Sequence record: DRR378314_1440 | Direction: 5' to 3' (one strand) | DNA length: 35,840 bases | Shown here: piece after piece, positions 1 to 35,840 of the stretch | Position numbering within the stretch: the stretch's first letter is position 1 | How the letters are laid out: every line of letters starts with the position of its first letter | The notes under the pieces: model-generated | What the model saw: only the letters and a program-made list of their open reading frames with translations | What the model was told of the DNA's origin: nothing | Databases searched by the model: none | Made by a program: the position numbers and the translations under genes

Positions 1-1506
1 GCCGTCGATGCTGTCATTGCCGGCGCCACCATAAACCACGTCACGCAGATCGCTGGCGCTGTTTCCGCCGTTGATGGTATCATTGCCGTCACCGCCGCTG
101 ATCGTATCGGCACCATCTCCGGCGCTGATATGATTGTCGGCCGCATTGCCGGTGATGGTGTCATTGCCACTGCCCGCGATCAGGTTCTCGACCACGGTGC
201 CGCGGGCGATCCCCACATTGCCGATCAGGCCGGCCACATCAGAGAAGCTCTCGTCGTTGAGGTCGATCCGGTCGGCGGTGGTGTTGTTGCTGAGGTCAAG
301 CGTGTCGGTGCCGCTCACATCATAGATTGTGAACGACATGCTGTTGGCGGGGTCGCGATCCGGAGAGCTGCGCCCCTCGAGGACCCCGAAGATATCATAA
401 AGATAGCTGTCGGTGAGCGTGGTATTGGCGCCCCAGGTGGTGTCACCCGCCGTTTCACTGCTTTCACCCGCGGCCCCATAGAGGTTCTGGATCGCCACGA
501 TGTCAGCCATCTGGGTGGTGACCACATAGCCAAAGGAGGCGGCGGTCGTGCTGTTATCCTCCTGATCGAAGTAGGACATGATCGACAGCTGCCAGCTGTC
601 ATTGCTGAAGGTTTCATGGGTGCCATAAACAGCGTTGCCGTTGTAGGCGCCCTGATGGCCGAGCCCCAGCGCGTGACCAAGCTCATGCACATAAGTCTGG
701 AACGAGTAACTGTTGATATCCGTGCCGTTGGTGCTCAGCCAGTTGGTGGACACATTCACCTCGGAGGAGATGATGGTGCCGCCGGCGAGGGCGGAGGTGG
801 CATAGGCACCACTGTCATTGTCATCAAAGGTGATATCGGAAAAGGACGATGCGGTTTCCACAAAATCCAGGTTGGCCACCCGTTCCCAGGCTTCAAAGGC
901 CCAGCGGGCCAGTTGTTGTCCGGCGGCGGTCAGCCCGGTGATATTGACCGAGATCTGGTTGTCTGCGGAGGTGTCAAAACTGCGCCCGGAGCGCCCTCCA
1001 ACCTCTTCCCAGTAGCCATCGGTCAGGAACGCGGCCATCTCGTCCAAGGTGGCGGGCTCCGGCGGCTGGGTCTCTGCCACGCTCAGGGTATAGGTGCCGG
1101 TATTGGTGTCATAGGCGTCTGCTGCAACGTAATAGGTGCCGCTGGTGGTGGCCGTGTAGATCAGAAGGGATTCAAGGCTCCCCCCGGCGTCGTCATTGGA
1201 GGTGATCTGGGTGCCGCTGCTGCTATAGAGCCGCAGGAGAGGATCTGACAGCGTGCCATTGCCACTGGGGGCGCCGGTGAGATCGATCTGGTAGGTCTCT
1301 CCGGCGGTCAGGGTGATGGCCACCCAATCCTCATCACTGCTGTTGCCGATACTGCCATTGAAAGTGTCGCCCACCGACATGGAATAGGCCGTGGCGGTGG
1401 AGGCGCTGGCATCAAACCCTTCGGTAATCGCGGCGAACTCGCCAGCGCCGTCTTCGCCGTGGCGCAGGGGATCAAATGTCTGGGTGGCATTACACAGGAA
1501 ACACAT
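1..1506 (-). CDS. Serralysin-like M10B zinc metalloprotease with N-terminal PPC-like domain and RTX repeats; 3' end runs off the window (502 codons visible)
   Basis: Not in the ORF track. Manual minus-strand translation from ATG at 1506: MCFLCNATQTFDPLRH..., a PPC-like segment (GDTFNGSIGNSSDEDWVAITLTAGETYQIDL...SGTYYVAADAY), the zinc motif HELGHALGLGH (655-687), the Met-turn SIMSY, and RTX-type GGAGNDSIDG at the window edge, which is in the same frame. Confidence 0.93.
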   Translation of the reverse strand, partial: MCFLCNATQTFDPLRHGEDGAGEFAAITEGFDASASTATAYSMSVGDTFNGSIGNSSDEDWVAITLTAGETYQIDLTGAPSGNGTLSDPLLRLYSSSGTQITSNDDAGGSLESLLIYTATTSGTYYVAADAYDTNTGTYTLSVAETQPPEPATLDEMAAFLTDGYWEEVGGRSGRSFDTSADNQISVNITGLTAAGQQLARWAFEAWERVANLDFVETASSFSDITFDDNDSGAYATSALAGGTIISSEVNVSTNWLSTNGTDINSYSFQTYVHELGHALGLGHQGAYNGNAVYGTHETFSNDSWQLSIMSYFDQEDNSTTAASFGYVVTTQMADIVAIQNLYGAAGESSETAGDTTWGANTTLTDSYLYDIFGVLEGRSSPDRDPANSMSFTIYDVSGTDTLDLSNNTTADRIDLNDESFSDVAGLIGNVGIARGTVVENLIAGSGNDTITGNAADNHISAGDGADTISGGDGNDTINGGNSASDLRDVVYGGAGNDSIDG

Positions 1507-2065: not shown

Positions 2066-2481
2066 ATTGTCCACCCATCTGTCTGATCCACGCGCATGTC
2101 TGTTCGAGCTGCCGCCGATCCTCTGGTCTCGCCCACCGGCCGCCATGGTAGCCCTCAATGAGGTGTTTTAGTAGCAATCACCCCGGTTGTCTAAAATCGC
2201 AGACAATAAATAGCCCGACGGCGATTTTCAGCCCGGTTCTCGCATGCCGGAGAAGATCCACACGGGGTGCCGGGACAGGCTCTCGGGGTGTTCCAGCCCC
2301 TGCGGTGAGGGTTTTATATTGTTTCACCTCCGCACGTGTTGGGCGATATTTCCCCGCATTGGTTCCCAGATGAGGAAAATGCTATATATCTGCCCCCCTG
2401 CGGCCACATTTGCGCCCCGCTCCCTGCCGGGCTGCAGACGGACAGTCCCTCCCGTGGACTTGAACGGTGGGAGTGGGCCTC

Positions 2482-4710
2482 ATGGCGAGCCTCAATGGAA
2501 CAGACTGGGACTGGATCGACATCACTGCCCTGCCCGGCAGCGCGCCGGTGGTGGAGCTGGCGATCTTTGCCGCCCCCTCTGGCGGCACCACGCTGGTGGC
2601 GGCCTCGGCGGCAGGCGGCGGGCTGGTCTCCTTCGACCTGTTGGGCCAGGGCAGCGCCAGCTTTGCCAGCTATTGCGCCTATGCCCCCTCGCAGAGCGGC
2701 ATGTCCGGCATGGATCTGCATCAAGTGAACCTGGGCGGCAGCACCAGCGTGATGCCGCTGGGTCCCGCCACCGGCGGTGGTCATGGCTATCTGATGCAGG
2801 CGAGGGGCGGGCTGGCCGGGGGGCAGAGCCTTGATCCCGATGGCGCGCTGACCGGCGCATCGGTGGGCCGGATCACCGCCAGCCTGACGGTACAGGAGAG
2901 CGATGGCGTGCAGCTGATCACCGCCGGCACCGGCGGTCTGAGCAGTTGGCAGATAGAGACCGACACCCTGACGCAGCAGGACCAGGTGACCCTGCCCGCC
3001 GCCGCCGATCAGGTCAGCGCGCTGGCCCTTGCGCATGGGGATATCGTGCTTTCGGCCCAGGCCGACAATGACAGCCTGCAAAGCTACCATTTGCAGGCGG
3101 ATGGCAGCCTTGTTCTTCGCGACAGCTACGGCGCCGCCGACGGTATCGGCATCGATGCGCCCACCGCGCTGGTCACCGCCAGCCAGGGGGCCGACAGCTA
3201 CGCCATTCTCGCCGCCGCCGGCAGCGACAGCCTGAGCGTGGTGCGGGTGGGGCGCGACGGCAGCCTGACCCCGGTGGATCATATTCTCGACAGCGCCAGC
3301 AGCCATTTTCAGAATGTCGGCGAGGTCGTGGTGACCCAGAGCGGCGACTGGACGCTGGTGGTGGCGGCCGGCAGCGATGGCGGCTGCTCGGTCTTTGCGC
3401 TGCTGCCCGGCGGGCTGCTGTCACCTTTGGCGCATCTGCCCTGGAGCCAGGACGACAGCCTGACGATCCGCCCGGTCTCCGGTCTTGCGGTGCAGGTCTT
3501 GGACAATGGCCTGCATGTCTACGCCAGCCCCGAAGGCGGCCAGGGCCTGTATCATCTGACGCTGGATCTCTCCGGCCTCGGCGTGGTGCGCAGCGCCAGC
3601 GCCGCCGGGGCCACCCTCAGCGGCAGCGCCCGCGACGATGTGCTGACCGCCGGCAACAGCGACCAGCTTCTGGTGGGCGGCGCCGGCGCGGATACCTTTG
3701 TCTTTGCCGCCGCTGTGGCTGATGACAGCGGTGCTCTTGGCGCGGTGCAGGATTTCACCCCCGGCGCGGACCGGCTGGATCTGTCGGGCCTGCCACTGCT
3801 GCGGTCCGGTGACCAGCTGACGCTGGTGCAAAGCGGCAGTGACGTGGTGTTGCACTACGAAGACTACAGCCTGACCCTGCGCGGCGTGCGGCTGCAGGAT
3901 CTCGATCTGGAGCGCGATCTGATGCTGGAGCTGCAGCGCGGCGCAGTCAACAACACACCGGACCCCGGAGACACCACGCTCTACGGCACCGCAGGGGATG
4001 ATGTCCTGGAAGACGACGACGACGATGGAATGCTCCTTGGCGACGACGGCAATGACCGGCTGCTCGGCCAGGGCGGGCACGACCGATTGGAGGGCGGCCG
4101 TGGTGCTGACACCCTCAATGGGGGCGATGGCGATGACACCATTCTCGGGGGCGATGATGCGCTGGACCTGCGCGACCTGATCTACGCCGGCGCCGGAAAC
4201 GATGTCGTCGACGGCGGCCATGGCAACGATCTGATCTACGGCCAGGCGGGCGATGACACCCTCGACGGCGGCTGGGGCGCCGACGAGGTGATCGGCCAGG
4301 GCGGGGACGATGTGCTGAATGGGGGCGTTTATTCGGACCTGGTCTACGGCGGCACCGGGCGGGATTTTGTCAACGGCGGCTTTGGTCATGATCGCATCAA
4401 TGGCGGCGCCGGAGCGGATCTGTTCTACCACCTCGGGATTGCCGACCATGGCTCTGACTGGATCCAGGACTACAGCGCGACCGAGGGAGATGTCTTGTTG
4501 TTCGGACAGAGCAATGCCCGACCGGAGCAGTTCCAGATCAACTATGCCCATACGGCGGATGCAGCGGGCGAACGCTCCGGTGCCGATGATGTTGCCGAGG
4601 CTTTTGTGATTTACCGACCCACCGGCCAGATCATCTGGGCGCTGGTCGATGGCTCCGGTCAGGACGAGATCACTCTACGCCTCGCTGGTATCGACTATGA
4701 CTTGCTCTGA
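2482..4710 (+). CDS. RTX/hemolysin-type calcium-binding protein with N-terminal beta-propeller-like region (type I secretion substrate)
   Basis: ATG at 2482 after GGGAG. Repeated propeller-blade-like segments (DSLQSYHLQADGSL, DSLSVVRVGRDGSL). Many GGxGxDxL nonapeptides between ~3980 and 4420. No Sec signal peptide seen. Confidence 0.88.
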   Translation: MASLNGTDWDWIDITALPGSAPVVELAIFAAPSGGTTLVAASAAGGGLVSFDLLGQGSASFASYCAYAPSQSGMSGMDLHQVNLGGSTSVMPLGPATGGGHGYLMQARGGLAGGQSLDPDGALTGASVGRITASLTVQESDGVQLITAGTGGLSSWQIETDTLTQQDQVTLPAAADQVSALALAHGDIVLSAQADNDSLQSYHLQADGSLVLRDSYGAADGIGIDAPTALVTASQGADSYAILAAAGSDSLSVVRVGRDGSLTPVDHILDSASSHFQNVGEVVVTQSGDWTLVVAAGSDGGCSVFALLPGGLLSPLAHLPWSQDDSLTIRPVSGLAVQVLDNGLHVYASPEGGQGLYHLTLDLSGLGVVRSASAAGATLSGSARDDVLTAGNSDQLLVGGAGADTFVFAAAVADDSGALGAVQDFTPGADRLDLSGLPLLRSGDQLTLVQSGSDVVLHYEDYSLTLRGVRLQDLDLERDLMLELQRGAVNNTPDPGDTTLYGTAGDDVLEDDDDDGMLLGDDGNDRLLGQGGHDRLEGGRGADTLNGGDGDDTILGGDDALDLRDLIYAGAGNDVVDGGHGNDLIYGQAGDDTLDGGWGADEVIGQGGDDVLNGGVYSDLVYGGTGRDFVNGGFGHDRINGGAGADLFYHLGIADHGSDWIQDYSATEGDVLLFGQSNARPEQFQINYAHTADAAGERSGADDVAEAFVIYRPTGQIIWALVDGSGQDEITLRLAGIDYDLL

Positions 4711-15214: not shown

Positions 15215-16366
15215 TTATTTGTCCACGTCATGATGCGCATCATGCAAAATTTCATATTGCATGATGTTCCTCATCGCCACCGCCGCGTTGCTGCCCGCGC
15301 TGAGCTGCTGCAGAAGATCGTCTTTCAGCTCGCGCAGTTCTTGCCGTAGCCGATCCATATCCCGCCGATTGAAATCGGCCAGAAAATACTCCAGCGCTGC
15401 GCCCCATCCTCGCTCAAGCAGCATCATGGCATACAGGCTTGCCTGTGTTCCCATAAACGCATCCAGTTCAGCAGAGATCGCCTCTGCTGGTTCGGCTGCT
15501 GCAAGCACCTCAGCTGCGCGCCGAAAGTAATAGGGGGCCGCCTGCGGCTGAAGCCTCTGCAAATGCCAGTTCATATTCGACAACAGCCAGTTGACTGCCT
15601 GCCGATGAAACGAGACGGCCATATCGGGTTGCAGATATCCCAAGATGGTCTCGAAATGATCGAGAAACGCGATCAGCTCGATCCCGGTGCTTGCCATTGT
15701 CTGACCCGGACGGTTGGTCCGATGATAACACAGTGTCGCATCAAAGAACGTGATCTGCCGGGTCTTGAGGCACACCTGCCAGTGGAACGGGTTGTCTTCA
15801 AAAAAGAAATCCCCCTCCGGAAAGCGCAGCCCGTTGGCGTTCAGAAACGCCCGCCGGTAGAATTTGCGCCAGGGCACGGCAATGAATGCCAAGGCCTGCA
15901 GTTGCAGTGCCTCCCCCTGCGCCTGCCCGGTGATATGGCACCAGCGCCCCTCATCCGCCGGCGCCTTGAAAACGGCGTTTGCCTCGTCGAACTCTTGATA
16001 GTTGGCAATGAGGATATCGCAGTCCCCGCGTTCGAATGCAGCCCGGGCCGCATTGAAGCCATCAACATCCAGCCAGTCATCGCCATCCACAAAAAACACA
16101 CCGTCACGCGCAGCCATATCCAGTCCGATATTGCCGGCGATCCCCACGCCTCCCATGGTGTTCTGCCCCAGAAAGACCGGGCGTTTCTCGACCCCCTGCG
16201 GCGCATCCGCCAGACAGGCTTTGACAACAGCTGGCGTGTCATCGCTGGAGCCATCGTCGACAACGATGATTTCATCCCCAGGGCGCGCCACCTCCAGCAC
16301 GCTGCGCAAACAGCGGTCGATATATGTCTCGATATTATAAGAGGTTACGATAAATGAGATTTTCAT
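15215..16366 (-). CDS. Glycosyltransferase family 2
   Basis: ISFIVTSYN, VVDDGSSD, FVDGDDWL, PWRKFYRR, FFEDNPF. Confidence 0.9.
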   Translation of the reverse strand: MKISFIVTSYNIETYIDRCLRSVLEVARPGDEIIVVDDGSSDDTPAVVKACLADAPQGVEKRPVFLGQNTMGGVGIAGNIGLDMAARDGVFFVDGDDWLDVDGFNAARAAFERGDCDILIANYQEFDEANAVFKAPADEGRWCHITGQAQGEALQLQALAFIAVPWRKFYRRAFLNANGLRFPEGDFFFEDNPFHWQVCLKTRQITFFDATLCYHRTNRPGQTMASTGIELIAFLDHFETILGYLQPDMAVSFHRQAVNWLLSNMNWHLQRLQPQAAPYYFRRAAEVLAAAEPAEAISAELDAFMGTQASLYAMMLLERGWGAALEYFLADFNRRDMDRLRQELRELKDDLLQQLSAGSNAAVAMRNIMQYEILHDAHHDVDK

Positions 16367-17337
16367 GCCTCACCCTCTTCAAGAAAATCGAGCAAAGCCG
16401 TACTCAGATGCGGATCATTCAATGCCAGCCGCTTGAACACACCAGGCGACAGCCGATCAAGCACAAAGGCCCTGCGCAGGATATGGAACTCCTGCAGACG
16501 CTCCTGCGTCAGGTTGTTTGGAATCCAGCGCATCAGCTTGTTCACAAAACGCCAATACGACAATTGCATCCTGATCGTGATTTCAGCGCCTTCGATCCGC
16601 TTTGACACATTGTCCAACGCCTCGAACACACGCAGGCGCTCTGCCCCTTTGCGATTGGTGATCCGATTGCCATGATCCGCCACAAAATGGGTAATCCCGG
16701 TGTGATGCGAATACAGGACCCGTCGCGCCAGCAGAAAGCTCACCCAATGCAATTCAATGTCATTATGAACCGGGATTTCCGTGCACAGGATCTCATGCTC
16801 TTTCAGGAAACCGGTGCGATACAGCTTGTTCCAAGGGTAGGCACTGACGGCGGCCATCTCGCATTTCTGGTGTTCGCTCATGACTTGGGGGACATCCAGG
16901 CGTGGCAGCTGGTCCCAGCTGCGTTCGTCCACCGGCAGCCCCGACTTGCGTCCCAGATGCAGCTCACGGCTGTCCAGGTGGCGGAACATCGCAAAGTCAA
17001 AAGGCTCCGGCGTCGCCACAAAAGCCTCCAGAACAGCCCCATACTCCGAGGTCGGAAGATCATCTGAATCCAGAAAAATAACATAGGGCTGCGTGACCGC
17101 ATTCAGGCCAGTATTGCGTGCCGCCCCCCCCCCCCGGTTCTCCGCATGCCGCAGGATCTGCAGGCTCTGCCCTGCGGCTTCGGATCGGGCCCGACGCAGC
17201 TGTGTCTCCAGCGGCGTCTGCGAGCAGTCATCGACGACAATCACCTCTGACACCACGGCCACATCCGCAAGCGTCTCGAGCACGGCCTGCACACCCTCGG
17301 CATCATTCCAGGCAGGGATAACAACAGATACGGTCAT
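16363..17337 (-). CDS. Glycosyltransferase family 2 containing an in-frame poly-G tract
   Basis: VSVVIPAWN, VVDDCS, NRGGGAARNTG, FLDSDD, PWNKLYR. ATGA overlaps with both neighbours. Confidence 0.9.
   Translation of the reverse strand: MTVSVVIPAWNDAEGVQAVLETLADVAVVSEVIVVDDCSQTPLETQLRRARSEAAGQSLQILRHAENRGGGAARNTGLNAVTQPYVIFLDSDDLPTSEYGAVLEAFVATPEPFDFAMFRHLDSRELHLGRKSGLPVDERSWDQLPRLDVPQVMSEHQKCEMAAVSAYPWNKLYRTGFLKEHEILCTEIPVHNDIELHWVSFLLARRVLYSHHTGITHFVADHGNRITNRKGAERLRVFEALDNVSKRIEGAEITIRMQLSYWRFVNKLMRWIPNNLTQERLQEFHILRRAFVLDRLSPGVFKRLALNDPHLSTALLDFLEEGEA
17124..17135 (-). repeat. G12 homopolymer (C12 on + strand) inside GT2 coding sequence
   Basis: + strand reads ccg-cccccccccccc-ggttc. The coding strand reads CGG GGG GGG GGG GCG. 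Confidence 0.95.
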
Positions 17338-17933
17338 GCTACGAAGAACCGCACTTGGGTTAAGCTCAGGTCGATGTCCTGAGACGGGAAGAAGACAATC
17401 AAGTCACGCCATTCTGCTGTCAGGTGGATGCCTTCTGACTGATCCAGCAGACAGAAATCCGCATGATGCCCCGGCGCGGTGGTGCTGATCAGATGCTTGT
17501 CGAAGAAGAAATCCCGGAACTTTCCATGCTGCCCGCTTCGCAGACACACCCGGGAAACGGCCGCAGATTGATGCGACTGCGACTTGATCATCACCCCAAC
17601 CAGACTCGCATCTTTCAGATCCAGCGCCCCCAGCACAAAATGCAGCGCCGTCCAACGGTTCTCCGAATGTGCCGTCGCGCGTAGGCGCAGCACATCGCCC
17701 ACGGGGCTGAGCACCGTAGTTTCCCGTGGGTTTAAAGGGTCCTGATCCATGCGTATGCCCGGCGACAGATCCACCCCAACAGGTACGGGCTCCGTGATCG
17801 AAAGCGCGCGCAATGCATCAATTCGCTTATTCACATCCCCCTGCCCGGCCACCAGGGATCTGACCATCGGCACCCGGTCAAGGGTTGGCCCCAGAATGCG
17901 CTTTGCAGCCTGTTTGGCGCGAGAGGTCACCAT
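17334..17933 (-). CDS. Hypothetical protein (~199 aa), predicted beta-rich
   Basis: ATG at 17933 preceded by GGAAGGA. Translationally coupled (ATGA) to the downstream GT2. Alternating hydrophobic strand-like segments. Confidence 0.7.
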   Translation of the reverse strand: MVTSRAKQAAKRILGPTLDRVPMVRSLVAGQGDVNKRIDALRALSITEPVPVGVDLSPGIRMDQDPLNPRETTVLSPVGDVLRLRATAHSENRWTALHFVLGALDLKDASLVGVMIKSQSHQSAAVSRVCLRSGQHGKFRDFFFDKHLISTTAPGHHADFCLLDQSEGIHLTAEWRDLIVFFPSQDIDLSLTQVRFFVA

Positions 17934-18030
17934 TTTGAAATCCTTCCACACAGATCGGCAAGGCCTCTGCGCCCCGCCAGCCGGCGCTCTATTAGACAGA
18001 AATGGCGTGTGCCACCAATCGCGATCACCC

Positions 18031-19218
<1,188 letters not shown>

Positions 19219-19343
19219 TCAAAATCACGCGCACCCTAAAGGGCGCCTCCGCCAGCGGCAAGCAGGCCCTGTCGCACTATCGGCTTTTTCCTCCCTGCCC
19301 CATTGGATATACGCGTATCCAGCAACCAGTCAGTCGGCCGCGC

Positions 19344-20399
19344 ATGAAAATTATCCTCTCTATCGGTCACCCAACGCCGGGCACCCTTCACCTTCGGCAG
19401 AGATTGGCCGGGGCCTGGTCGCAGCTCGCGGCGCAGCACGTCTTGCTCCCCGCATTGTCTCCCGCCAGCCAGGCCTGGACGCTGGCGCAGGCTATAACTG
19501 CCGAGAACGAGACTGGACGCCCCGCCCCTGCAGATCTGACGCAGGAACACGCGTTGCTCGGATCGAATCACAATATCACCCAGGGCAGCTTGAAAGCGCA
19601 GATGCAGCATGTGGCCCCAGCCACCGTGCTCCTGTTCCCTGCCAGCTCCGACAGTTCTGAAGATGCAACCAATGCAGCCAGAACCGCATTGGCGAAGCTC
19701 CTGCACAAAGCCGAAGTCCACCTCTATTGCGCGCTGCCGCGCCCGGACCTGCATCTCGAACGCCTGCTCACCCGGAGCATTTCTGACGGCGCGCCGCTTG
19801 GGGCATTGGCTGCTGAAACAGAGGCGCTTCTTGACAGTCCACATGTGGATTACCGCCAGCTTTTGGCGCCCTGGTTGGCGCTGTTTCCCAAGGCCCCGCT
19901 TCATCTCCATGCGGCTCAGGACCCCGACGCCGAGATCGCGCGCTATTGCGAGATCGCAGGCCTTCCTGCCCTGCCCGACCTGTCAATCGCCCCGCAGCAG
20001 CCCCGCCCTCTTCCCCGGGCTCTGCTGGACCCGATGCGACTCGCCAATGCGCTGGCCCCCGGTGATTTTGACTTTCACGCCGAACTGCAGAGCCGCCTGG
20101 GCCAATGCACTCTGCCGCAAGACGCCGACGTCGAACTGTTCGGCGCGGAAATCCGCCAGCGCCTTCATGACAGTTTTGCTCCCGTCGCCGAAGCGCTCGC
20201 ACAGCACACCGGCGGCGGTGCCGCATTCGAAGACCTGGATGCCATTCTGCGCCCTCGCCCGATCCCGCTTGATCAGCTGCACCCCGGCTTTCTGCGCGCG
20301 CTGCCGGGGTTTCCAACCACATTGTTCCGCCCACGCCTGCGCGCCCTGCGCCAGCAGCTGAAGAAAAAACGCTCTGACAAGTCCGCAGCAGCGTGCTAG
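19344..20399 (+). CDS. Degenerate sulfotransferase-fold protein, paralog of the downstream gene
   Basis: MKIILSIGHPTPGT aligns with MKVILYIGHHKVGS of 20443..21567. Shared blocks YCALxRPD, DVE(L/V)FGA, F(E/D)DLDxILxPR. Confidence 0.7.
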   Translation: MKIILSIGHPTPGTLHLRQRLAGAWSQLAAQHVLLPALSPASQAWTLAQAITAENETGRPAPADLTQEHALLGSNHNITQGSLKAQMQHVAPATVLLFPASSDSSEDATNAARTALAKLLHKAEVHLYCALPRPDLHLERLLTRSISDGAPLGALAAETEALLDSPHVDYRQLLAPWLALFPKAPLHLHAAQDPDAEIARYCEIAGLPALPDLSIAPQQPRPLPRALLDPMRLANALAPGDFDFHAELQSRLGQCTLPQDADVELFGAEIRQRLHDSFAPVAEALAQHTGGGAAFEDLDAILRPRPIPLDQLHPGFLRALPGFPTTLFRPRLRALRQQLKKKRSDKSAAAC

Positions 20400-20442
20400 A
20401 TCCAGCCGTCACAGCCCAGCACAACACGCGGCCAGAACCTTA

Positions 20443-21567
20443 ATGAAAGTTATTCTTTACATCGGCCACCACAAGGTTGGCTCCACCGCCCTGCAGGCGT
20501 TTCTGGCCCGGAACTGGGCCGCCCTGGCGCGATCCGGCATCCTGTATCCCAGTGTCGACGGGCGCGGCTATGCTCAGAACCTGAGCCAACTTCTGAACAA
20601 GACCCAGCCAAAGCACCTGCCGCCCCATCTGCGCGAACCGCATAACGCGCTGGCCTACCAGATGATCGCCGACGTCAGTCGCCGCCCGATTCCAGATCAA
20701 TTCGGCCAGCTGCCGGGCACCGCCGCCATGCTAGATATGATCCGTCAGCAAACCGACGCGCTGGAACCGCATACGGTGATCCTCTGCGCCGAAGCCTTTG
20801 CCAATTTCGGCGAAGTCGGGCCGGATTTGATCACCCGCCTGTGCGCCGCGTTTCCGGCGGCGGAGTTCACCGTGTATTGCGCCCTGCGCCGCCCGGACGA
20901 ATACCTCGCCTCCTGGCACGGGCAGCGGTTGAAGGTCGGAGAACCCGCAGCCCCCCTGCGCAGCTCCGGGCTGAAGCATTACCTCAAGACCATACACTTC
21001 AACTACCGCACCGTCGTCAGCGCCTGGGTGGAGCGGGTGCCCGCGGCTCGGCTCATCCTACGCAACTATGCCGATATTCTGGCCACTGGCGGCTCGGTGG
21101 AGGATTTTTCCGAACACTGCGCCCTGTCCCTGCCGGACGACATCAAGCCGCAGGGGCGTGCCAACCCCAGCCTGCCGTTGGCGGCCTTTGCCGTGATGGA
21201 GCGCGCCAACAAGGCGCTTGCCCCGCAACCCCGGCATAATCTGTCGATGTTCCTGCAGCGGCAAGCTGGTGCTCTCTGCCCGGTGGCGAACCGTGATGTG
21301 GAAGTCTTTGGCGCCCCCCAGCGTGAGCAGATGCTGGCCGCCTTTCGCCCGCATGAAGCCTATCTGGCAGAGCTCATCGGCCAGCCCCGCTTTTTCGATG
21401 ATCTCGACAGCATCCTCATTCCGCGGACAGTGCCGGATCAGGACGCCGCACGGCAATTGCTGGACGTGATCGACCCTGAGACCATTCCCCACCCCATCCC
21501 GCGCGACTTCATCCGCTCTCTCAAGAGCAGTTTTGTCCCCCAACGTCAGGCGCAGCACCTTTCATGA
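20443..21567 (+). CDS. Sulfotransferase-fold protein, putative polysaccharide sulfotransferase
   Basis: ILYIGHHKVGSTALQ, VILCAEAF, YCALRRPDEYLASW, NPSL. Confidence 0.75.
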   Translation: MKVILYIGHHKVGSTALQAFLARNWAALARSGILYPSVDGRGYAQNLSQLLNKTQPKHLPPHLREPHNALAYQMIADVSRRPIPDQFGQLPGTAAMLDMIRQQTDALEPHTVILCAEAFANFGEVGPDLITRLCAAFPAAEFTVYCALRRPDEYLASWHGQRLKVGEPAAPLRSSGLKHYLKTIHFNYRTVVSAWVERVPAARLILRNYADILATGGSVEDFSEHCALSLPDDIKPQGRANPSLPLAAFAVMERANKALAPQPRHNLSMFLQRQAGALCPVANRDVEVFGAPQREQMLAAFRPHEAYLAELIGQPRFFDDLDSILIPRTVPDQDAARQLLDVIDPETIPHPIPRDFIRSLKSSFVPQRQAQHLS

Positions 21568-23384
21568 TCACTCTCCAGAACATCATCGCGCCAGAAATCG
21601 GCATCTGTACAGAAAACAGGCTCTATTACAGAGAAACTGGGGCTGTCGGACTGGATTTGGAGCAGGGGATTTACCGTGTTCCGCCCGGCTGCCGGATCGG
21701 GTTCGACACCTATTTCAACCTCTTCAATCTCGACAGCTGGATGGCCCACTGCAGCCTCTGCGGCCTGTTGCTGGAAATCAACGGCAGCGGCGAAGCCGAG
21801 GTCCGTGTCCACCAGGATCTTCCGGGGCGCTCCGGCGAGGTCATCTGGTCGCAAGTGGTCCGGCTCACAGCGGACGCTCCTCTGGTGCTGGATCTGGAGG
21901 ATCTGCTGCTCGAACCACATGGGGTGCTGTCGTTCAGTGTCACCGCCCTGTCGGAACCGGTCACACTCAGCCACGCCCGCTTTGCAACCGCCCACCTCCC
22001 CGACGTACGCCGCGAGACGCTGCCCGAGCTGGCGATTTCGATCACCACCTTCCAGCGCGAAACCGAGGTGGAGCGCACCGTGACCCGGCTCTGCGCCTTC
22101 CTGAAAACATTTGCCTATGGCGATCACATTCGCCTGCAGGTGGTCGACAACGGCCAAAGCGCCGCCCTGCCTGCCACGGACGGGCTGCATGTCTACCCCA
22201 ACCACAACTACGGGGGCGCCGGCGGTTTTGCCCGCGGCCTGCTCGAAGCCGAGGCTGCCGGGGTCAGCCATTGCCTCTTCATGGATGACGATGCCTCGTT
22301 TCATATGGAAAACATCGCCCGCGCCTACATGTTTCTGCTTCTTGCCCGCGATCCGCGCACCGCATTGGCCGGAGCGATGATCAATACCACCCATAAATGG
22401 GCGATCTGGGAAAGCGGGGCCTGGTTCAACGGCGCCTGCCGGCCGCTGTTCAATGGCGTTAACCTGCGCAACCGCGCCCGGATGATGAAGATGCAGCATG
22501 CCCAGACCGGCCCGCAGCCCGACACGCTCTATGGTGGCTGGTGGTTCTTTGCCTTCCCGGTTGCGGGGCTGCGCCACCACCCCTTTCCCTTCTTCGTGCG
22601 CGGCGATGATATCAGTTTTTCGCTGGCCAATGATTTTGCCATCCGCACCCTGAACGGGGTGGTCTCCTTTCAGGATGATTTCACCGAGAAGGAAAGCGCC
22701 CAGACGCTTTACCTCGATCTGCGCAACCATCTGATCCATCACCTGGTCTTCGACAGCCTCGCCCGCAGCCCGCTGGGCACGGCACGGGTGGCGATCCGTT
22801 TCATCCTGCGCTCGCTGCTGCGATTGCATTATTCCAGCGCCCAAGCTCAGCTATTGGCCTGGCGGGACGTGATGGAGGGACCAGAGTTCTTCGATACCAA
22901 TATCGACATGAGCGCCCGGCGCAGCCGCATCCGTGACATGGCCGGGGACGAAGCCTGGCAGCCGGTGGCCGACCTGCCGCACGCCACCCCGCGCAAACGG
23001 ATTTTCACCCGCGTGTCGCGCAAGCTGCGCACCGGCCTCGGCCTCCTGACCCTGAACGGTCACCTGATCCCCTTCTGGTCCCGTATGGGCAGTCGCATCC
23101 AGCAGGACATCAGCCAGCGAGGGCTGGTCTATCACGCGCTTGGAGCCGCAGAGATCACCTTCGCCAACACCAACCGCGACAAGGCCTATACCCTGCGCCA
23201 TTCCAAGCGACGGTTCTTTTGCATCGCTTGGGAAATGACACGCCTCACGGTCCGGTTCATGCGGGAATTCGATCAGCAAAAATCAACCTGGCGTCAGGGT
23301 TATACCACCATGACCACGGCGCAGTACTGGCAGGAAAAACTCGCTCCGATGGCGGGCCAAACAGGCTCTGAGCAGGAGAAATAG
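21564..23384 (+). CDS. GT2 glycosyltransferase, galactofuranosyltransferase (GlfT2)-like
   Basis: AISITTFQR, VVDNG, NYGGAGGFARG, FMDDDA, YGGWWFFAF, FFVRGDDISF. glf lies nearby. Confidence 0.82.
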   Translation: MITLQNIIAPEIGICTENRLYYRETGAVGLDLEQGIYRVPPGCRIGFDTYFNLFNLDSWMAHCSLCGLLLEINGSGEAEVRVHQDLPGRSGEVIWSQVVRLTADAPLVLDLEDLLLEPHGVLSFSVTALSEPVTLSHARFATAHLPDVRRETLPELAISITTFQRETEVERTVTRLCAFLKTFAYGDHIRLQVVDNGQSAALPATDGLHVYPNHNYGGAGGFARGLLEAEAAGVSHCLFMDDDASFHMENIARAYMFLLLARDPRTALAGAMINTTHKWAIWESGAWFNGACRPLFNGVNLRNRARMMKMQHAQTGPQPDTLYGGWWFFAFPVAGLRHHPFPFFVRGDDISFSLANDFAIRTLNGVVSFQDDFTEKESAQTLYLDLRNHLIHHLVFDSLARSPLGTARVAIRFILRSLLRLHYSSAQAQLLAWRDVMEGPEFFDTNIDMSARRSRIRDMAGDEAWQPVADLPHATPRKRIFTRVSRKLRTGLGLLTLNGHLIPFWSRMGSRIQQDISQRGLVYHALGAAEITFANTNRDKAYTLRHSKRRFFCIAWEMTRLTVRFMREFDQQKSTWRQGYTTMTTAQYWQEKLAPMAGQTGSEQEK

Positions 23385-23394
23385 GGCAGATCCG

Positions 23395-24048
23395 TCAGCG
23401 CAACGCGGATTCATGTACGGCGATGGCCTCTTCGAGGTCTTCGTAGTATTCCGCTTTGCCACCTTCCAGCACCACACCGGCATTGCAGAACTTGCGCACC
23501 TCGCCCATGGAGTGGTTGACCAGAATGGCGGAAGAGCTGCGCATCCGCTCGGCGAACACCGCCTGGCTCTTGCGTTTGAAGGACTGATCCCCCACTGCGG
23601 TGACCTCGTCCACCAGATAGGTATCGAATTTGATCCCCATCGAGGCCCCGAACGTCAGACGCGACCGCATGCCACTGGAATAGGTCCGCATCGGCATGTG
23701 ATAGGATCGGCCCAGCTCGGCGAACTCGCCCACGAAATGCACCAACTCATCGGTATCAACCCCGTAGATACGGGCAACGAAACAGACATTTTCCGCGCCC
23801 GTCAGATCCCCGTGAAACGAAGCCGCAAGCCCGACCGGCCAGGAAATCGTGCCATCGCTCAGCACCCGGCCATTATCGGCCGGCAGGGTTCCTGCGATGA
23901 TCTCCAGCAAGGTGGACTTGCCCGCCCCGTTGCGTCCCAGCAGCGCCAGAGACTTGCCCGTGGGCAGGGTCAGTGACAGGTCGTCGATCACCACCTTGCG
24001 CTCCCCCTTGATCCAGAAGGTCTTGGTCAGGTTTTCCAGCCGGATCAT
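23395..24048 (-). CDS. kpsT: Capsular polysaccharide ABC exporter ATP-binding protein
   Basis: Walker A GRNGAGKST, signature YSSGMRSRL, Walker B YLVDE, VGDQSF. 217 aa with no C-terminal extension. Confidence 0.95.
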   Translation of the reverse strand: MIRLENLTKTFWIKGERKVVIDDLSLTLPTGKSLALLGRNGAGKSTLLEIIAGTLPADNGRVLSDGTISWPVGLAASFHGDLTGAENVCFVARIYGVDTDELVHFVGEFAELGRSYHMPMRTYSSGMRSRLTFGASMGIKFDTYLVDEVTAVGDQSFKRKSQAVFAERMRSSSAILVNHSMGEVRKFCNAGVVLEGGKAEYYEDLEEAIAVHESALR

Positions 24049-24058
24049 GCCTGTTGCC

Positions 24059-25474
24059 TTATCGCCGGTCGCGAACCGAGTAGTAAATCAGGACCATGAT
24101 GGCCCAGCCCATCAGCAGAAACAGCCCGCCCAGAGCAGGAATCAGGTAACGGCGCGGATATTCGGAATCTTCGGCTCGTGTCGGATTGATATAGGTTGCC
24201 AGGTAGCGGCTTTGCCGGGTGGCCTCGTCCCGCGCCAGCTCCATCGAGGTCAGCGCCACACGATAGGATTGCTCGGCAAATTCCCGATCCACGGTCAGCC
24301 GCTCGAACTCGGAAATCAGTGCGGGATATGTCTCACCCGCGCCGCCGCCCTCGATGCTTTCGGAGGAGGCAAAGCTGGTGCGCTCCTGGTCGATCCGTTC
24401 GCGGATCACGGTGATGCGACGCTCCGCCGTGGCCAGACGCGGGTCATCACCGCTGACGGTCCCGCGCAACAGGTCATATTGCACCAAAGCCTCGGCCAGC
24501 TGCTGCTGAAGGTTGTTCATCACCCCCATACGCCCCTGGATATCCGCTTCCGGATCGACGATCCGAGTGCGGGTGCGAAACTGCACCATCGCCTCGCGCG
24601 CAGCTTTCAAACGCTCCAACGCCTCGTTCAGATCGGCACGAGCGTAGCGCATGGCATCTTCGCGCGCCTGTTCATTCAGAATATTGATGCGCGCCTGCGA
24701 ATGCGCCACGATCGCTTGGGTGATTGCCTGCGCCATGTCACGGTCATAGGCCACCACCTGGATCTCGGTCAGGCCGGAGCCACTGTCATAAGACACGCTG
24801 ACAATGCGCTGCCAGAACCAGATCAGATCCTCCACCGTTGCATCCGGCCAGATCGAGAAGGCCCAGTCCTTCGGCCAATGGGCGGCATAGTGATCGACAA
24901 GACCCAGTTCGGCATTGATCTCCTGGGCAAGCTCCTGGCTCTGGATGAATTCATAGAGGATATCACTGTCCGCCCCGGTGCCGCCGCCAGCACCGGCGAA
25001 CTGCGCCAGCCCGCCCAGCAGATCGGTGGCCGAGGCGCCCTCCTGGCTGCGGACCGTAAAGCCCGCCCGCGACACATACTGATCTTCCGCCACCACAAAG
25101 AGATACATCGTGATCGCCACCAGTGGCACCAAAACGACGGCCACAAAGCTGCCCAGCACGCCCCAGTGCCGTTTTTTCATCCGCGCCGGCTGTGCCACCG
25201 CCGGCACCGCTGTTGCAGACAGTTTCTTGTTCAGCTCGTGGACCTTGTCCTCGGCCGTCTTGGCCCGGTGGCGCAGGGCAGAGAGCTCCTTCTCCGCACC
25301 ATCCGGAACTGCCGGATTTTTTTGCGGTGGCGTTTTGGCGGGCGGTGTTTTGGCCGCTTTTTCCGTCTCGGAGGGGGGGGCCGTCTTGGCCTCGGCAGGT
25401 GCATCCTGCTTGGCATCAGAGGCAGGTGCCGGTGCATCGCCCGCAGATTTGATGGGGGTTACATTATCGCTCAC
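24059..25474 (-). CDS. kpsE: Capsule export inner-membrane adaptor / polysaccharide co-polymerase (KpsE/RkpR family)
   Basis: Two TM segments (…SFVAVVLVPLVAITMYLF…DQYVS…F; YPRR…LIYYSVRDRR) flank a coiled-coil periplasmic region. Pro/Ala/Lys-rich N-terminal extension. GTG start at 25474 is tentative. Confidence 0.88.
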   Translation of the reverse strand: MSDNVTPIKSAGDAPAPASDAKQDAPAEAKTAPPSETEKAAKTPPAKTPPQKNPAVPDGAEKELSALRHRAKTAEDKVHELNKKLSATAVPAVAQPARMKKRHWGVLGSFVAVVLVPLVAITMYLFVVAEDQYVSRAGFTVRSQEGASATDLLGGLAQFAGAGGGTGADSDILYEFIQSQELAQEINAELGLVDHYAAHWPKDWAFSIWPDATVEDLIWFWQRIVSVSYDSGSGLTEIQVVAYDRDMAQAITQAIVAHSQARINILNEQAREDAMRYARADLNEALERLKAAREAMVQFRTRTRIVDPEADIQGRMGVMNNLQQQLAEALVQYDLLRGTVSGDDPRLATAERRITVIRERIDQERTSFASSESIEGGGAGETYPALISEFERLTVDREFAEQSYRVALTSMELARDEATRQSRYLATYINPTRAEDSEYPRRYLIPALGGLFLLMGWAIMVLIYYSVRDRR

Positions 25475-25643
25475 AACGGCATCGCTTTTTAAAAGGCATA
25501 TCGGGCGAGTTATCACGACAAATGCCTCCGAGATCAATGGGCGGCTGAGGCTCTTTACAGGAAAGAGCCGTTTGTCACCACCGCAGCCTTCCTTCATAGT
25601 GCGCCCTGAACCTGTATCACCCCGTTGATTTCCCGAGAGTCTG

Positions 25644-26468
25644 ATGGCCGATTCCCCGCAGCAGCCTGTTCTTCCTGCCCTCACCCCGGTGCGCGGCAGC
25701 CCCAGACGCTTTGCAACCGCCCGAACGATCATGGCTCTGATCCTGCGGGAGATGTCCACCCGCTACGGGCGCACCCCCGGTGGCTATCTCTGGACCGTGC
25801 TGGAACCGCTGGCAGCGATCCTCTTTCTCAGCCTCGGCTTTTCTTTGATGTTGCGCAGCCCGGCACTCGGCAACAGCTTCCTGCTGTTTTATGCCACCGG
25901 CTACATGCCGTTTGAAATCTATATGAGTCTGTCGCGGACCTGCCGCCACGCAATCGGATTTTCCAAACCCCTGCTGCGCTATCCCGCAGTCACATGGATC
26001 GATGCCATGTTGGCCCGCCTGCTGCTGAACGCTCTGACCGGGGTCTTCAATTCCTTCCTGCTTCTCGGCGGCATCCTCCTGTTCACCGATGCGCAGGCCA
26101 TGCTGGATCCGGAACCGATCCTGTCCGCCTTGCTGCTGGCAATCCTGCTGGGGCTGGGCATCGGCTCCATCAATGCAGTCCTGTCCGCCTTCTTCCCGAT
26201 CTGGGATATCATCTGGAGCGTTGTGAACAGGCCGCTGTTCATCGCCTCCGGGATCTTCTTCCTCTATGATGATATGCCGCGCTTTGCTCAGGACATCCTG
26301 TGGTACAACCCTCTCATTCATATCGTCGGCCTGATGCGAACAGGGTTTTACCCAAGCTACGCGGCCTCCTATGTCAGTGAGCTTTACGTAATGTTCCTGA
26401 GCCTCGGGTTGACGGCTTTTGGCTTCTTGCTGCTGGCCCGTTTCAATCGCGACATACTGAACCGCTGA
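25644..26468 (+). CDS. kpsM: Capsular polysaccharide ABC exporter permease
   Basis: ALILREMSTRYGRTPGGYLWTVLEP, about six hydrophobic segments, SGIFF, WYNPLIH. Confidence 0.93.
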   Translation: MADSPQQPVLPALTPVRGSPRRFATARTIMALILREMSTRYGRTPGGYLWTVLEPLAAILFLSLGFSLMLRSPALGNSFLLFYATGYMPFEIYMSLSRTCRHAIGFSKPLLRYPAVTWIDAMLARLLLNALTGVFNSFLLLGGILLFTDAQAMLDPEPILSALLLAILLGLGIGSINAVLSAFFPIWDIIWSVVNRPLFIASGIFFLYDDMPRFAQDILWYNPLIHIVGLMRTGFYPSYAASYVSELYVMFLSLGLTAFGFLLLARFNRDILNR

Positions 26469-26476
26469 GTGCGTGT

Positions 26477-27478
26477 TCAGTCCCGTGGTTTGGCCAGATC
26501 CAACACCTGGGCGTGAGACATCGACGTCCGGCCCAACACCCCATCGCGAATCGCCCGGCGCAGCAACCGCAGGAACACCGGGGTATCCGCACCGTAGTGG
26601 CGCGCTTTCATCACCCACTTGGGTAATATCACCAGCAGCGCGGGCCAAAACATCAGCCCTGCCGCCATCCGATACAGGAACAGCAGATTGCGGTGGTAGT
26701 AATAGATCTTCCACAAGGGAGCGAGCCGCCCCCGCTGCACCGCCACCTGCCCCTCTGACCCGGCAAAGCTGGTCAGATCATGCTCAAAACGAACCCCCGG
26801 CTCAAAACCGATTCGCCCCCCCTGCTTGCTCAGGCCCAGCGTGTAGATGCCGTCATCACCATAGATGAACAGATTTGGATCAGGATAGCCGATCCGCCGC
26901 ACCGCCTCTGCCGAGATGAAAAACCCCACAAAGGAGGTGACATCGATCCCCCTGCCTTCTCCTTCATAGGCAGCGGGCGGAATGTGAAATCCCGAACGCC
27001 CGCCCCCCAGCACCGTGCGCAGGAATTCGCGCTGGTGCCAGAACGGGTTGCGTGAAGGCCGGTTCATCTCGCAGATTTCTCCGGATGGGAAATAGACCGC
27101 GGCCGCCATCGCATCCCATTTGCCGTCCGGCACCGCGTGAAAAGCCGCCAGCCCTCCCGGTTCCGGGCGGCCATCATCATCCATCACCACCAGCCAATCG
27201 GGCGCGTGCTGCTCCATCGCGTGACGCATGCCCATGGCAAAGCCCCCCGCTCCCCCGGAGTTCACTTTGCTAGACAACACATCAAGGCGCGGATCGCTCA
27301 AGCCAGCCAGCCATGCGCCGGTTCCATCCGTAGAGGCATTGTCCGCCACCACCACCATAGCCAGCTCTTCGGCCGGGCTTTCCAGCAAGCGCGCAAGCGT
27401 AACCTTCAGCTTATCGAGCCGGTTGTAGGTTACCACCACGGCCACCAGCCGGCATTGCGTCCCATCGGGGAAGGACAT
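26477..27478 (-). CDS. Glycosyltransferase family 2 (GlfT1/rhamnosyltransferase-like)
   Basis: ATG at 27478 after AAGGAG. VAVVVTYNR, ADNASTDGT, NSGGAGGF, VMDDD, SFVGF, FIYGDD, YYYHRN. Confidence 0.9.
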   Translation of the reverse strand: MSFPDGTQCRLVAVVVTYNRLDKLKVTLARLLESPAEELAMVVVADNASTDGTGAWLAGLSDPRLDVLSSKVNSGGAGGFAMGMRHAMEQHAPDWLVVMDDDGRPEPGGLAAFHAVPDGKWDAMAAAVYFPSGEICEMNRPSRNPFWHQREFLRTVLGGGRSGFHIPPAAYEGEGRGIDVTSFVGFFISAEAVRRIGYPDPNLFIYGDDGIYTLGLSKQGGRIGFEPGVRFEHDLTSFAGSEGQVAVQRGRLAPLWKIYYYHRNLLFLYRMAAGLMFWPALLVILPKWVMKARHYGADTPVFLRLLRRAIRDGVLGRTSMSHAQVLDLAKPRD

Positions 27479-27760
27479 ATTCGGGCACGCTCCTTGATTT
27501 TGGCCGTCTCGCGTCTCCCATACAGGCACAACGCCCGACTGACAAACCACGTCTCAACACACAATGCCCACCCCGCAAAGAGCGTCGCCCGGAAACCACC
27601 CCGCCCGTCGCTCCCGACAGGGCAGCTCTGACCTGAATGTCACAGCAGCCGTAGCAGTGCCCCACAGACAGCTCCCATGTTGACGCTCCCCTCCGTGACA
27701 GTATTGTGCGGCATGAACTTCCACCGTCATTTCCTGACTGCCATCAGGATTAGGATCTCA

Positions 27761-28873
27761 ATGCTGAAACTTCCGCTCCTGGTCGCCGCACTTGGCATCG
27801 CCCTCCTGCCCGCAGCCTGCTCACGCCTGCCCGGAGGCGCCCCCGCCAGCGAAGAGATCCTGCGATCCGCCTCACAGGCAGATGCGAATTTTGCGCTCTA
27901 CACGGTGAACCGTGCCTTTCTGCCCACCGTGGCGCACTGGCCCCCGACCGGCAAGCAGGAGAGCCTCGGCTGGATCAGAGCCAGTCGGGGCCCCAAGACC
28001 CAGATCATCCAACCCGGCGACCAGCTGACGTTGCGCATCTGGGACAGCAATGAAAGTTCACTGCTGAGCTCCGTCGGTCAGAAAATGGTACAGCTGCAGG
28101 ACGTGCGGGTCTCCGCCAACGGCAATGTCTTTCTGCCCTATGTCGGCGAAAAGAACGTCAATGGCATGACCCCGGAACTGGCGCGCGAAGAACTGCAGGC
28201 TGCCCTGGAGGTGATCGTGCCCTCCGCCCAGCTGCAACTCGACATGAAAGAAGGCCGCAACAACTCGGTCGATCTGGTGTCCGGTGTGGCGCGTCCCGGC
28301 ACCTATCCGATGCCGGATCGTAATTATTCGGTGATGGGGCTGATTGCCGCGGGTGGTGGCATTTCCTCCAGTCTGAACAATCCACAGATTCGCTTGATGC
28401 GGGGCGGACGCCTGTTCGGCACTTCGGTGGACAGCCTGTTGAACCACCCTCAGAAGGATACGCTGCTACGCGGTGGTGACCGTGTCTTTGTCGAAGAAGA
28501 CGAACGCTATTTCCTGTCGTTTGGGGCCACTGGAACCGAGGATCTCCACACGTTCACCAAGGATGACGTCTCGGCGATGGATGCCCTGTCGATCTCAGGC
28601 GGGTTTCAGGACAGCAAGGCCGACCCCAAAGGTCTGTTGATTCTGCGAGAATACTCTGCCTCAGCGGTGGCACCGGGCGTGCGGGGACCACGGCAGCAGC
28701 GAGTGGTCTTCACCCTTGACCTGACCACGGCAGAAGGGCTGTTCTCAGCCCGCAATTTCCAGATCAATCCCGGCGATCTGGTCATGGCCACCGAAAGCCC
28801 GATCAATGATGCTCTGACGATCTCCAACCTGATCGGCAATATCTTCGGCGTCTTCAGCCGCGCGGGTCTCTAA
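27761..28873 (+). CDS. wza: Polysaccharide export outer-membrane lipoprotein (OPX, Wza/KpsD family)
   Basis: Lipobox-like LPAAC, PES motif IQPGDQL...GNVFLPYVG, SLBB-like GVARPGTY...AAGG, INPGDLV, amphipathic C-terminal helix. Confidence 0.9.
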   Translation: MLKLPLLVAALGIALLPAACSRLPGGAPASEEILRSASQADANFALYTVNRAFLPTVAHWPPTGKQESLGWIRASRGPKTQIIQPGDQLTLRIWDSNESSLLSSVGQKMVQLQDVRVSANGNVFLPYVGEKNVNGMTPELAREELQAALEVIVPSAQLQLDMKEGRNNSVDLVSGVARPGTYPMPDRNYSVMGLIAAGGGISSSLNNPQIRLMRGGRLFGTSVDSLLNHPQKDTLLRGGDRVFVEEDERYFLSFGATGTEDLHTFTKDDVSAMDALSISGGFQDSKADPKGLLILREYSASAVAPGVRGPRQQRVVFTLDLTTAEGLFSARNFQINPGDLVMATESPINDALTISNLIGNIFGVFSRAGL

Positions 28874-35467: not shown

Positions 35468-35751
35468 GCTTTCCACCTCACCGTCGGAGTTTTCCTCCAG
35501 TGCCCCGTTTTTTTTGAAACCCGAATTGCTCAATAATTCTGAACAAAATCCCCACGTGCCCGACGCCAATCCTTAGCATCTGCAGTATTACACGCCATAG
35601 TTTTTCCGCGACTGAACATAAAACTACGATATTTCCCTGCCACCTGTCGTTAATCTGCACACGTATCGGCAGAGTCACGCCGCTGAAGCCCAAGCATGCA
35701 TCAAAAAAAACGCGGAGGCGTGGCTTCGCGCCATCGATGATCCACCGCGCG

Positions 35752-35840
35752 ATAGGTCAACCTTCCTGCCACATTGTTTCGCGCGCGAAACAATAGGTCA
35801 GCACTACTTACCCAATGTTTCGCGCGCGAAACAATAGGTC
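35752..35840. repeat. 41-bp-period direct repeats containing the palindrome TGTTTCGCGCGCGAAACA (candidate parS-like sites), truncated by the window end
   Basis: Identical 25-mer TGTTTCGCGCGCGAAACAATAGGTC at 35775-35799 and 35816-35840. Perfect 22-bp palindrome at 35773-35794. ATAGGTC recurs at 35752, 35793 and 35834. Confidence 0.85.

Follow-up and report, generated by a model that had tools for sequence, protein, structure and literature searches.

A twelve-base poly-G tract in the reading frame of a surface-polysaccharide glycosyltransferase gene from a Tritonibacter scottomollicae-like roseobacter

The 35,840-nucleotide stretch of sequence record DRR378314_1440 (the window, by which the whole stretch of DNA that was analysed is meant) belongs to a Tritonibacter scottomollicae-like roseobacter and carries, within the open reading frame (ORF) of a GT2-family glycosyltransferase, an uninterrupted run of twelve guanines (G12). 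The run is probably an incidental, lineage-specific homopolymer coding for a conserved glycine loop, in a gene that is normally in frame (ON) and for which the tract can seed rare null mutants. This reading is ranked first because the in-frame footprint of the run is fixed, because three assemblies interrupt it synonymously, and because it is not conserved in orthologs. A preliminary description of the window had proposed a phase-variation switch, which would be refuted by a tract length invariant among relatives, by orthologs with mixed glycine codons or by an assembly artefact. The anatomy on which it built stands, that is the tract, its frame, the gene class, the locus and the overlap with the next gene; in consensus assemblies, however, the relatives and orthologs look largely as they should where no switch operates.

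On the plus strand the tract reads gccgCCCCCCCCCCCCggtt, its C12 corresponding to G12 on the minus, coding strand (Table 1), and it falls within the interval 17118..17141 given in the preliminary description. It begins at base 203 of the gene and occupies codons 68-72 of 324, CGG GGG GGG GGG GCG, coding for R-G-G-G-A, at 21% of the gene length and thus in the N-terminal fifth. Sequence, ORF and codon placement bear out the earlier claim of an in-frame G12 some 70 codons into the gene, in the N-x-G-x-x-x-A-R-N loop of GT2 enzymes, and a homopolymer count bears out that it is the longest homopolymer of the window, followed by three runs of eight and four of seven. How unusual the run is depends on the frame of reference. 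The window has a G+C content of 61.4%, and 100 dinucleotide-preserving shuffles yield a mean of 0.04 matches, with at least one in three of the 100, against the one observed; a first-order Markov estimate from the window composition yields about 0.5 (G) plus 3.6 (C) runs of at least 12 per 4.5 Mb, so that G12 is uncommon for a single 36-kb window, but not for a genome. The codons themselves are not extreme either, since GGG makes up 26.6% of glycine codons in the 23 ORFs of the window (GGC 413, GGG 220, GGT 108, GGA 85): the probability of GGG in all three positions of a triple glycine is about 0.018, and one of the ten window peptides of three or more consecutive glycines is all GGG. GGC is thus the commonest glycine codon, as had been said, but to call glycine mostly GGC overstates its share. 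A G-quadruplex was considered as well and rejected on general grounds, as twelve guanines alone cannot supply four runs of three.

The gene translates into 324 residues without an internal stop, including HAENRGGGAARNTGL, and is thus currently in frame, as the preliminary description held. The protein matches PF00535 (Glycos_transf_2) over residues 4-98 with an E-value of 1.4e-19 and 71.1 bits, against a cut-off of 23.3, and its closest solved structures are all GT2 enzymes (6p61_A with an E-value of 2.2e-6, then 5tze, 9jma and 2z87). Both acidic motifs are in place, VVDD at residues 34-37 and DSDD at residues 90-93, with D36, D37, D90, D92 and D93 unchanged in all 35 aligned homologs. All 16 NCBIfam matches lie far under their cut-offs, the best being MftF with 67 bits against 280, so that no named equivalog is reached; the nearest named protein shares the 90% cluster of the tract protein and carries the annotation of a T. 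scottomollicae glycosyltransferase. A plus-strand shadow ORF at 17093..17488 was rejected, as the Pfam match and the G+C by codon position favour the minus-strand gene.

Judged by the aligned homologs, the tract is taken to encode a loop conserved in the family, N-R-G-G-G-A-A-R-N. In the alignment A1 of 35 sequences, glycine occupies G69 in 34 and G71 in all 35, and R74 and N75 are likewise present in all 35; position 70 is the variable one, with glycine in 11 (the clade of at least 52% identity, plus P0006) and alanine in 24. The conservation of this glycine loop accounts for most of the G content of the tract.

Tract length among close relatives was compared in the contigs of four sequencing runs (X1, X3, X5 and X17) out of 23. 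X3 and X5 each cover the region in one contig (35,976 and 35,995 nucleotides), X3 with 53 differences and no gaps in 2,875 nucleotides and X5 with 55 differences and no gaps; X17 contributes a piece of 457 nucleotides (16806-17262) with 14 differences and no gaps. In these three, which are about 98% identical to the window, the sole change in the tract is 17125 C>A, at full depth, which turns the third GGG into GGT; it is synonymous and yields G10-T-G, so that the 12-nucleotide footprint is unchanged in all three crossing runs. None of the listed contigs of X1, which has the largest share of words in common with the window (0.89), covers 16995-17125, and an X1 contig breaks off at 17126, within the tract. 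One-base deletions at partial depth occur at many short homopolymers in the X1 contigs, so that X1 looks like an error-prone read set and is uninformative on the tract. The exact G12 is thus seen in the window only, and no independent assembly shows it.

The protein records give the same picture. The 90% cluster has eight members, of which three are full-length, found on ten, two and three contigs (15 in total), and all three read RGGGA; the Gly2 or Gly4 that in-frame changes of three bases would produce occurs in none of these three full-length variants. The only out-of-frame allele is P0125 (76 residues), which ends in NRGGRHAILA, the -1 frame after eight G's (G8), and whose matching C-terminal piece is P0129 (218 residues); both are listed with an ENA contig of 1,716,269 nucleotides. 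On the ENA contig of this size, glf has 442 residues where 390 are normal, the ABC ATPase has 156 where 217 are normal, and the neighbouring genes of 394 and 374 residues are fused into one of 783 (proteins P0125, P0129, P0138, P0142 and P0156 of that record); several NCBI and Logan records have these neighbouring genes at normal lengths. With the split glycosyltransferase gene, this public assembly of a near-identical strain has four frame anomalies in a stretch of a few kb, as expected of an assembly rich in uncorrected indels, and G8 is therefore not counted as a natural OFF allele; it is probably an assembly error. Two further short proteins come from contig ends: P0126 (70 residues, ending in NRGV) from a record of 5,093 nucleotides that also holds glf and the two neighbouring genes and ends at the tract, and P0128 (77 residues), which diverges nine nucleotides before the tract, from a record of 5,020 nucleotides. 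They are taken as contig-end effects and not counted as alleles; problems in reading poly-G, or real heterogeneity, could cause them. A search of shorter proteins for truncated homologs gives no match at E ≤ 1e-10 among 217 candidates, and separate clusters of +1-frame truncations were not found among the protein clusters. Searches for the exact flanks with a variable gap between them (genome contigs and metagenome contigs), and for the upstream flank with the start of the tract (metagenome contigs), give no matches; the gene is not in these collections, which thus say nothing on variation.

A simple sequence repeat (SSR) contingency locus has a simple repeat of mutable length inside a reading frame, and this is present, as G12 in the window and G10 in the relatives. 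It should also have a repeat number that differs between close strains or assemblies, and here the three runs share one footprint and the 15 contigs all code for Gly3. The comparison with close strains, which had been proposed as a check on the phase switch, thus speaks against it: the footprint of 12 nucleotides is invariant in three of three runs, and RGGGA in the three full-length variants.

Beyond this lineage the run dissolves. Close orthologs of the tract gene occur in only two species representatives of a related genus (three of 20 match at E ≤ 1e-40, two of them closely), and a family sample of 401 genomes gives two matches at E ≤ 1e-70; a 20-kb DNA search of the species representatives finds no locus above 91% identity, and in a plasmid collection no copy of the tract gene was found, glf alone matching, at 79-83%. 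The ortholog at 62% identity codes the loop as AAA GGG GGA GGG GGC, with two G5 runs, and the one at 60% as AAA AGC GGA GGC GCC; seven more distant loci have GGC, GGT or GGG with GCx between them. The long perfect run is thus confined to the T. scottomollicae-like lineage, within a near clade that codes the motif G-richly. The ortholog comparison suggested in the preliminary description likewise counts against a switch, with mixed glycine codons in the orthologs at 60-62% and in the more distant ones.

The proposed course of events starts from G-rich synonymous codon choice for the conserved Gly-Gly-Gly of the loop N-R-G-G-G-A-A-R-N, from which the run would have arisen. Pure G runs of 10-12 are indel hot spots through slipped-strand mispairing, and the slippage rate at the tract would be elevated. 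A slip of one base in either direction would end translation at about codon 78 or 92, before a complete DSDD, and yield a null enzyme: both alternative frames meet stops 6-21 codons on (Table 1), with no conserved sequence there, and the out-of-frame products are without a complete DSDD because this motif lies downstream of the tract and the stops fall before or within it. A slip might also lower the expression of the downstream GT2 gene, which overlaps the tract gene by four nucleotides (...gaggcATGAaaatc); this ATGA overlap of stop and start is confirmed in the sequence, and lost coupling or polarity on the downstream gene after a frameshift is possible. That gene has, however, its own Shine-Dalgarno-like GAGG at 16377..16374, seven nucleotides before its ATG, so that the earlier suggestion of both genes being silenced by one frameshift is unproven. 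Rare loss-of-function variants would thereby arise at the site, and these could be selected by phages or by other pressures on the cell surface.

Long G/C runs are not peculiar to this gene. Each of 20 genomes from the related genus has runs of at least 10, as have four of five other relatives, some of these runs being obvious contig-end artefacts; the gene context was examined for 21 tracts, which come from 20 loci in six genomes. In L022 (1501-1510, G412:C2) a G10 lies in ATG GGG GGG GGG ATC, coding for Met-Gly-Gly-Gly-Ile in a GGGxGxxP-type motif of a Fer4/DmmA-like/Fer2 oxidoreductase; in L020 (1501-1510, G412:C1) a C10 near the start of a DAO-family oxidoreductase gene, at about codons 4-7, codes for Pro-Pro-Pro. 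Both come from one related, complete-looking genome, and as both lie in ordinary metabolic enzymes, long in-frame runs can arise without a link to surface variation. MutS was found in all five related genomes searched, which argues for a mismatch-repair-proficient background. In some species-representative assemblies of the related genus (G409:C55, G415:C19 and G410:C12:566982-567129), many poly-G and poly-C runs stand within 100-200 nucleotides, often near contig ends; such clusters inflate homopolymer counts and probably stem from errors in sequencing.

Several observations weigh against an incidental run. Only two of the 21 tracts lie inside Pfam-supported genes and 19 lie outside long ORFs, which suggests that long runs are normally purged from coding DNA; the retention of one inside a gene is notable for that reason. 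Two allele lineages, which differ by about 1.9%, have both kept a run of at least 10. The position at 21% of the gene, the surface-glycan glycosyltransferase class and the slightly lower G+C of the gene block fit the profile of classical contingency loci. In X1 and in the records of P0126 and P0128, contigs run out at the tract or next to it, as expected from length heterogeneity in the reads, and equally from poor poly-G read quality; and consensus contigs drop minority variants, so that constant assemblies are compatible with switching at 1e-3 to 1e-5 per division. These points are at the same time the case for a true contingency locus, in which selection keeps G10-G12 for ON/OFF switching of the GT2 enzyme, perhaps together with the coupled GT2 enzyme, and the product would be a varied galactofuranose-linked capsule or O-antigen-like glycan, as bet-hedging against phages, gene-transfer agents and grazers: the site is the typical one, intragenic tracts are rare in relatives and yet this one is kept, and contigs break there in three assemblies. 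The tract is also long enough by the lengths given in the available text of two reports (modal nine, PMC3401435; at least seven, PMC4965091), and there is a roseobacter precedent in the glycosyltransferase frameshifts of R. denitrificans described in the available part of PMC13392355. Such a locus is nonetheless unlikely: length polymorphism is absent from the three crossing runs and from the three full-length variants on 15 contigs, truncated clusters are absent, the one OFF allele stands in an indel-rich assembly, the tract is missing from the orthologs at 60-62% identity, and the lineage has MutS. Its most elaborate form is about as unlikely, namely that a mismatch-repair-proficient, non-pathogenic roseobacter uses a poly-G switch of this GT2 enzyme and the translationally coupled one to vary a Kps-type capsule linked by galactofuranose (Galf), so that a minority of cells is without a receptor epitope for phages or gene-transfer agents, with G10-T-G and G12 as settings of low and high rate.

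Two further explanations concern the run itself. The exact G12 might be an artefact of assembly or polishing, the strain really having G10-T-G or another length: no independent assembly has G12, the X1 contig stops inside the run and shows the partial-depth deletions at short homopolymers that are typical of error-prone reads, and P0125, the sole protein with the N-terminal allele of the window, belongs to an assembly in which the tract has another length. An artefact of this kind is improbable, given that the frame in the window is intact at exactly 12 positions, with a footprint equal to that of three other runs, and that a T-to-G miscall would need a coincidentally correct length; and even if it were true, a real G10 run would stay in three independent assemblies. 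Programmed recoding, by which transcriptional or ribosomal slippage would give the full enzyme together with a short N-terminal product, is scarcely credible: the one point in its favour is the long homopolymer in a coding region, whereas the alternative frames stop after 6-21 codons of sequence that is not conserved, the tract is not kept in orthologs, and the known transcriptional slippage sites are mostly A/T runs. The reading of the tract as an incidental homopolymer remains the preferred one; in the assemblies compared there is no sign of frequent switching, or of upkeep of the tract for switching, every reliable assembly being ON with the same 12-nucleotide footprint.

The poly-G contingency genes for surface glycans, among them the Neisseria lgt genes, share their architecture with the tract gene: as in these and in the lipooligosaccharide and capsular polysaccharide genes of Campylobacter jejuni, a G run lies in the 5' part of a surface-polysaccharide glycosyltransferase gene, and a change of one base leads to an early stop. 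Unlike in C. jejuni and Neisseria, relatives here show no length polymorphism and no reliable OFF allele, and the tract gene belongs to a marine bacterium, free-living or surface-associated, rather than to a host-adapted pathogen. C. jejuni is not known to have mismatch repair, whereas the host lineage here has MutS; nor is the tract kept in orthologs at 60-62% identity. By the figures in the available text of the two C. jejuni reports, phase-variable genes have a modal poly-G/C length of nine (PMC3401435) and tracts of at least seven occur at 29 loci (PMC4965091), so that a length of 10-12 is at or above the C. jejuni range.

The closest models are found nearer to the host. In Rhodobacter capsulatus, of the same order (Rhodobacterales), a C10 coding run in copA is an experimentally shown indel hot spot, recovered among suppressors of a ccoA deletion, as described in the available text of PMC5829832; copA is the best model for the behaviour of the tract, with the difference that it encodes a copper exporter and that indels are shown there and none here. 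In Roseobacter denitrificans OCh114, the available part of PMC13392355 describes phage-resistant mutants that often have frameshifts in the glycosyltransferase RD1_1962 (NfrB-like), with mutations clustered in tandem repeats and homopolymers, for which its authors suggest reversible switching. RD1_1962 thus resembles the tract gene as a roseobacter glycosyltransferase whose loss by frameshift gives phage resistance there; it is another glycosyltransferase, its mutants came from laboratory selection, and that part of the report mentions no standing long poly-G tract. The preliminary description had known of nothing of this kind in roseobacters, a statement that this part of PMC13392355 renders dated. 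Among the publications searched, none joins the terms phase variation, roseobacter and homopolymeric.

Roseobacters are major marine surface colonisers and phage hosts, and their capsule and exopolysaccharide loci help to decide attachment and phage adsorption. Should the tract prove to be a switch, classical contingency-locus behaviour would reach beyond host-adapted pathogens into a free-living marine lineage, and the tract would provide a simple marker of receptor heterogeneity in natural populations. On present evidence it is better regarded as a commonplace weak point for mutation in an accessory glycosyltransferase, useful as a predicted loss-of-function hot spot in phage-selection experiments, and a place where assemblies of the species tend to break or to mis-call length.

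The tract gene is the third in a minus-strand block of four genes, in the order glf, an ORF without a family, the tract gene and the second GT2 gene (Table 1); the block has a G+C of 0.57-0.59, against 0.61 for the window, and a second ATGA overlap joins the stop of the ORF without a family to the ATG of the tract gene. A role of the tract gene in a Galf-containing glycan would follow from the adjoining glf only. The surroundings are those of a surface-polysaccharide locus with an ABC-transporter (Kps-type) export module: besides that module they hold a UDP-glucose dehydrogenase-family gene, further GT2 and WbsX/RgpF transferases, a Bac_transf initiating transferase, YjbF, YjbH and a Polysacc_synt_2 protein.

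Table 1. Positions of the tract, the stops reached after a slip, and the genes of the block and export module.
Feature	Position	Strand	Remarks
G12 homopolymer (C12 on +)	17124..17135	-	bases 2-3 of CGG (Arg68), GGG GGG GGG (Gly69-71), base 1 of GCG (Ala72)
GT2-family (GT-A type) glycosyltransferase gene, 324 aa, in frame (ON)	16363..17337	-	PF00535
DSDD, DXD-type motif, residues 90-93	17059..17070	-	D90, D92 and D93 invariant in 35/35 homologs
TGA reached after one-base loss (G11; also G8, G14), product ~77 aa	17103..17105	-	frame translation
TGA reached after one-base gain (G13; also pure G10), product ~92 aa	17060..17062	-	frame translation
Downstream GT2 glycosyltransferase gene, 383 aa	15215..16366	-	ATGA overlap with tract gene
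Upstream ORF, up to 251 aa, no Pfam or NCBIfam match	17334..18089	-	listed TTG start overlaps glf; true start uncertain
glf, UDP-galactopyranose mutase, first in four-gene block	18031..19203	-	PF03275, E 1.9e-78
ABC ATPase	23395-24048	-	export module 23395..28873
KpsE-like, below curated cut-off	24059-25759	-	export module
KpsM-like, below curated cut-off	25644-26468	+	export module
Further GT2	26477-27550	-	within export module
Poly_export/Wza-like	27677-28873	+	export module

The gene content resembles that of the Phaeobacter plasmid pGal_F69, where glf, a hypothetical gene and a GT2 gene stand beside an ABC ATPase, a capsule export protein and an ABC permease. Plasmids of about 65-70 kb are described as 'biofilm plasmids' of Phaeobacter and relatives in the available text of PMC5030684. 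The glf gene of the window is 81-83% identical at the DNA level to glf on Phaeobacter plasmids of about 69 kb; the P. gallaeciensis homolog of the tract gene (P0043) is 40% identical, and Phaeobacter-type homologs have R-G-A-G-H-A-R-N at the loop, in mixed codons (CGC GGT GCC GGT in L005, Phaeobacter sp.). Unlike those plasmids, one record has the locus on a contig of 1.7 Mb, so that its place may be the chromosome or a large replicon.

Some further features of the locus stand apart from the tract. The second-longest G/C run, a G8 on the plus strand (C8 in the coding sense) at 25373-25380, lies in the N-terminal part of the KpsE-like gene. Between glf and the ABC ATPase, three successive plus-strand ORFs (394, 374 and 606 residues, 19215-23384) are without a Pfam family, the last showing a weak GlfT1-like stretch (E 4.4e-6, far under the cut-off); the three might encode unrecognised transferases, or enzymes that modify the polymer, for the Galf-linked glycan. 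Two RTX/serralysin-type calcium-binding proteins, at 1-1506 (minus strand) and 2467-4710 (plus strand), flank the polysaccharide locus; both carry Peptidase_M10_C and HemolysinCabind, the protein at 1-1506 also Peptidase_M10 and PPC, and the homologous Phaeobacter plasmid cluster is likewise adjoined by an annotated 'calcium-binding protein'. Finally, a perfect 20-bp palindrome, TTGTTTCGCGCGCGAAACAA, occurs in two copies 41 bp apart, at 35774-35793 and 35815-35834, one exact and one with a single mismatch, a short way upstream of the minus-strand Polysacc_synt_2 gene (33575-35569); the number expected from shuffles is zero, and the pair resembles a paired operator or another putative protein-binding site.

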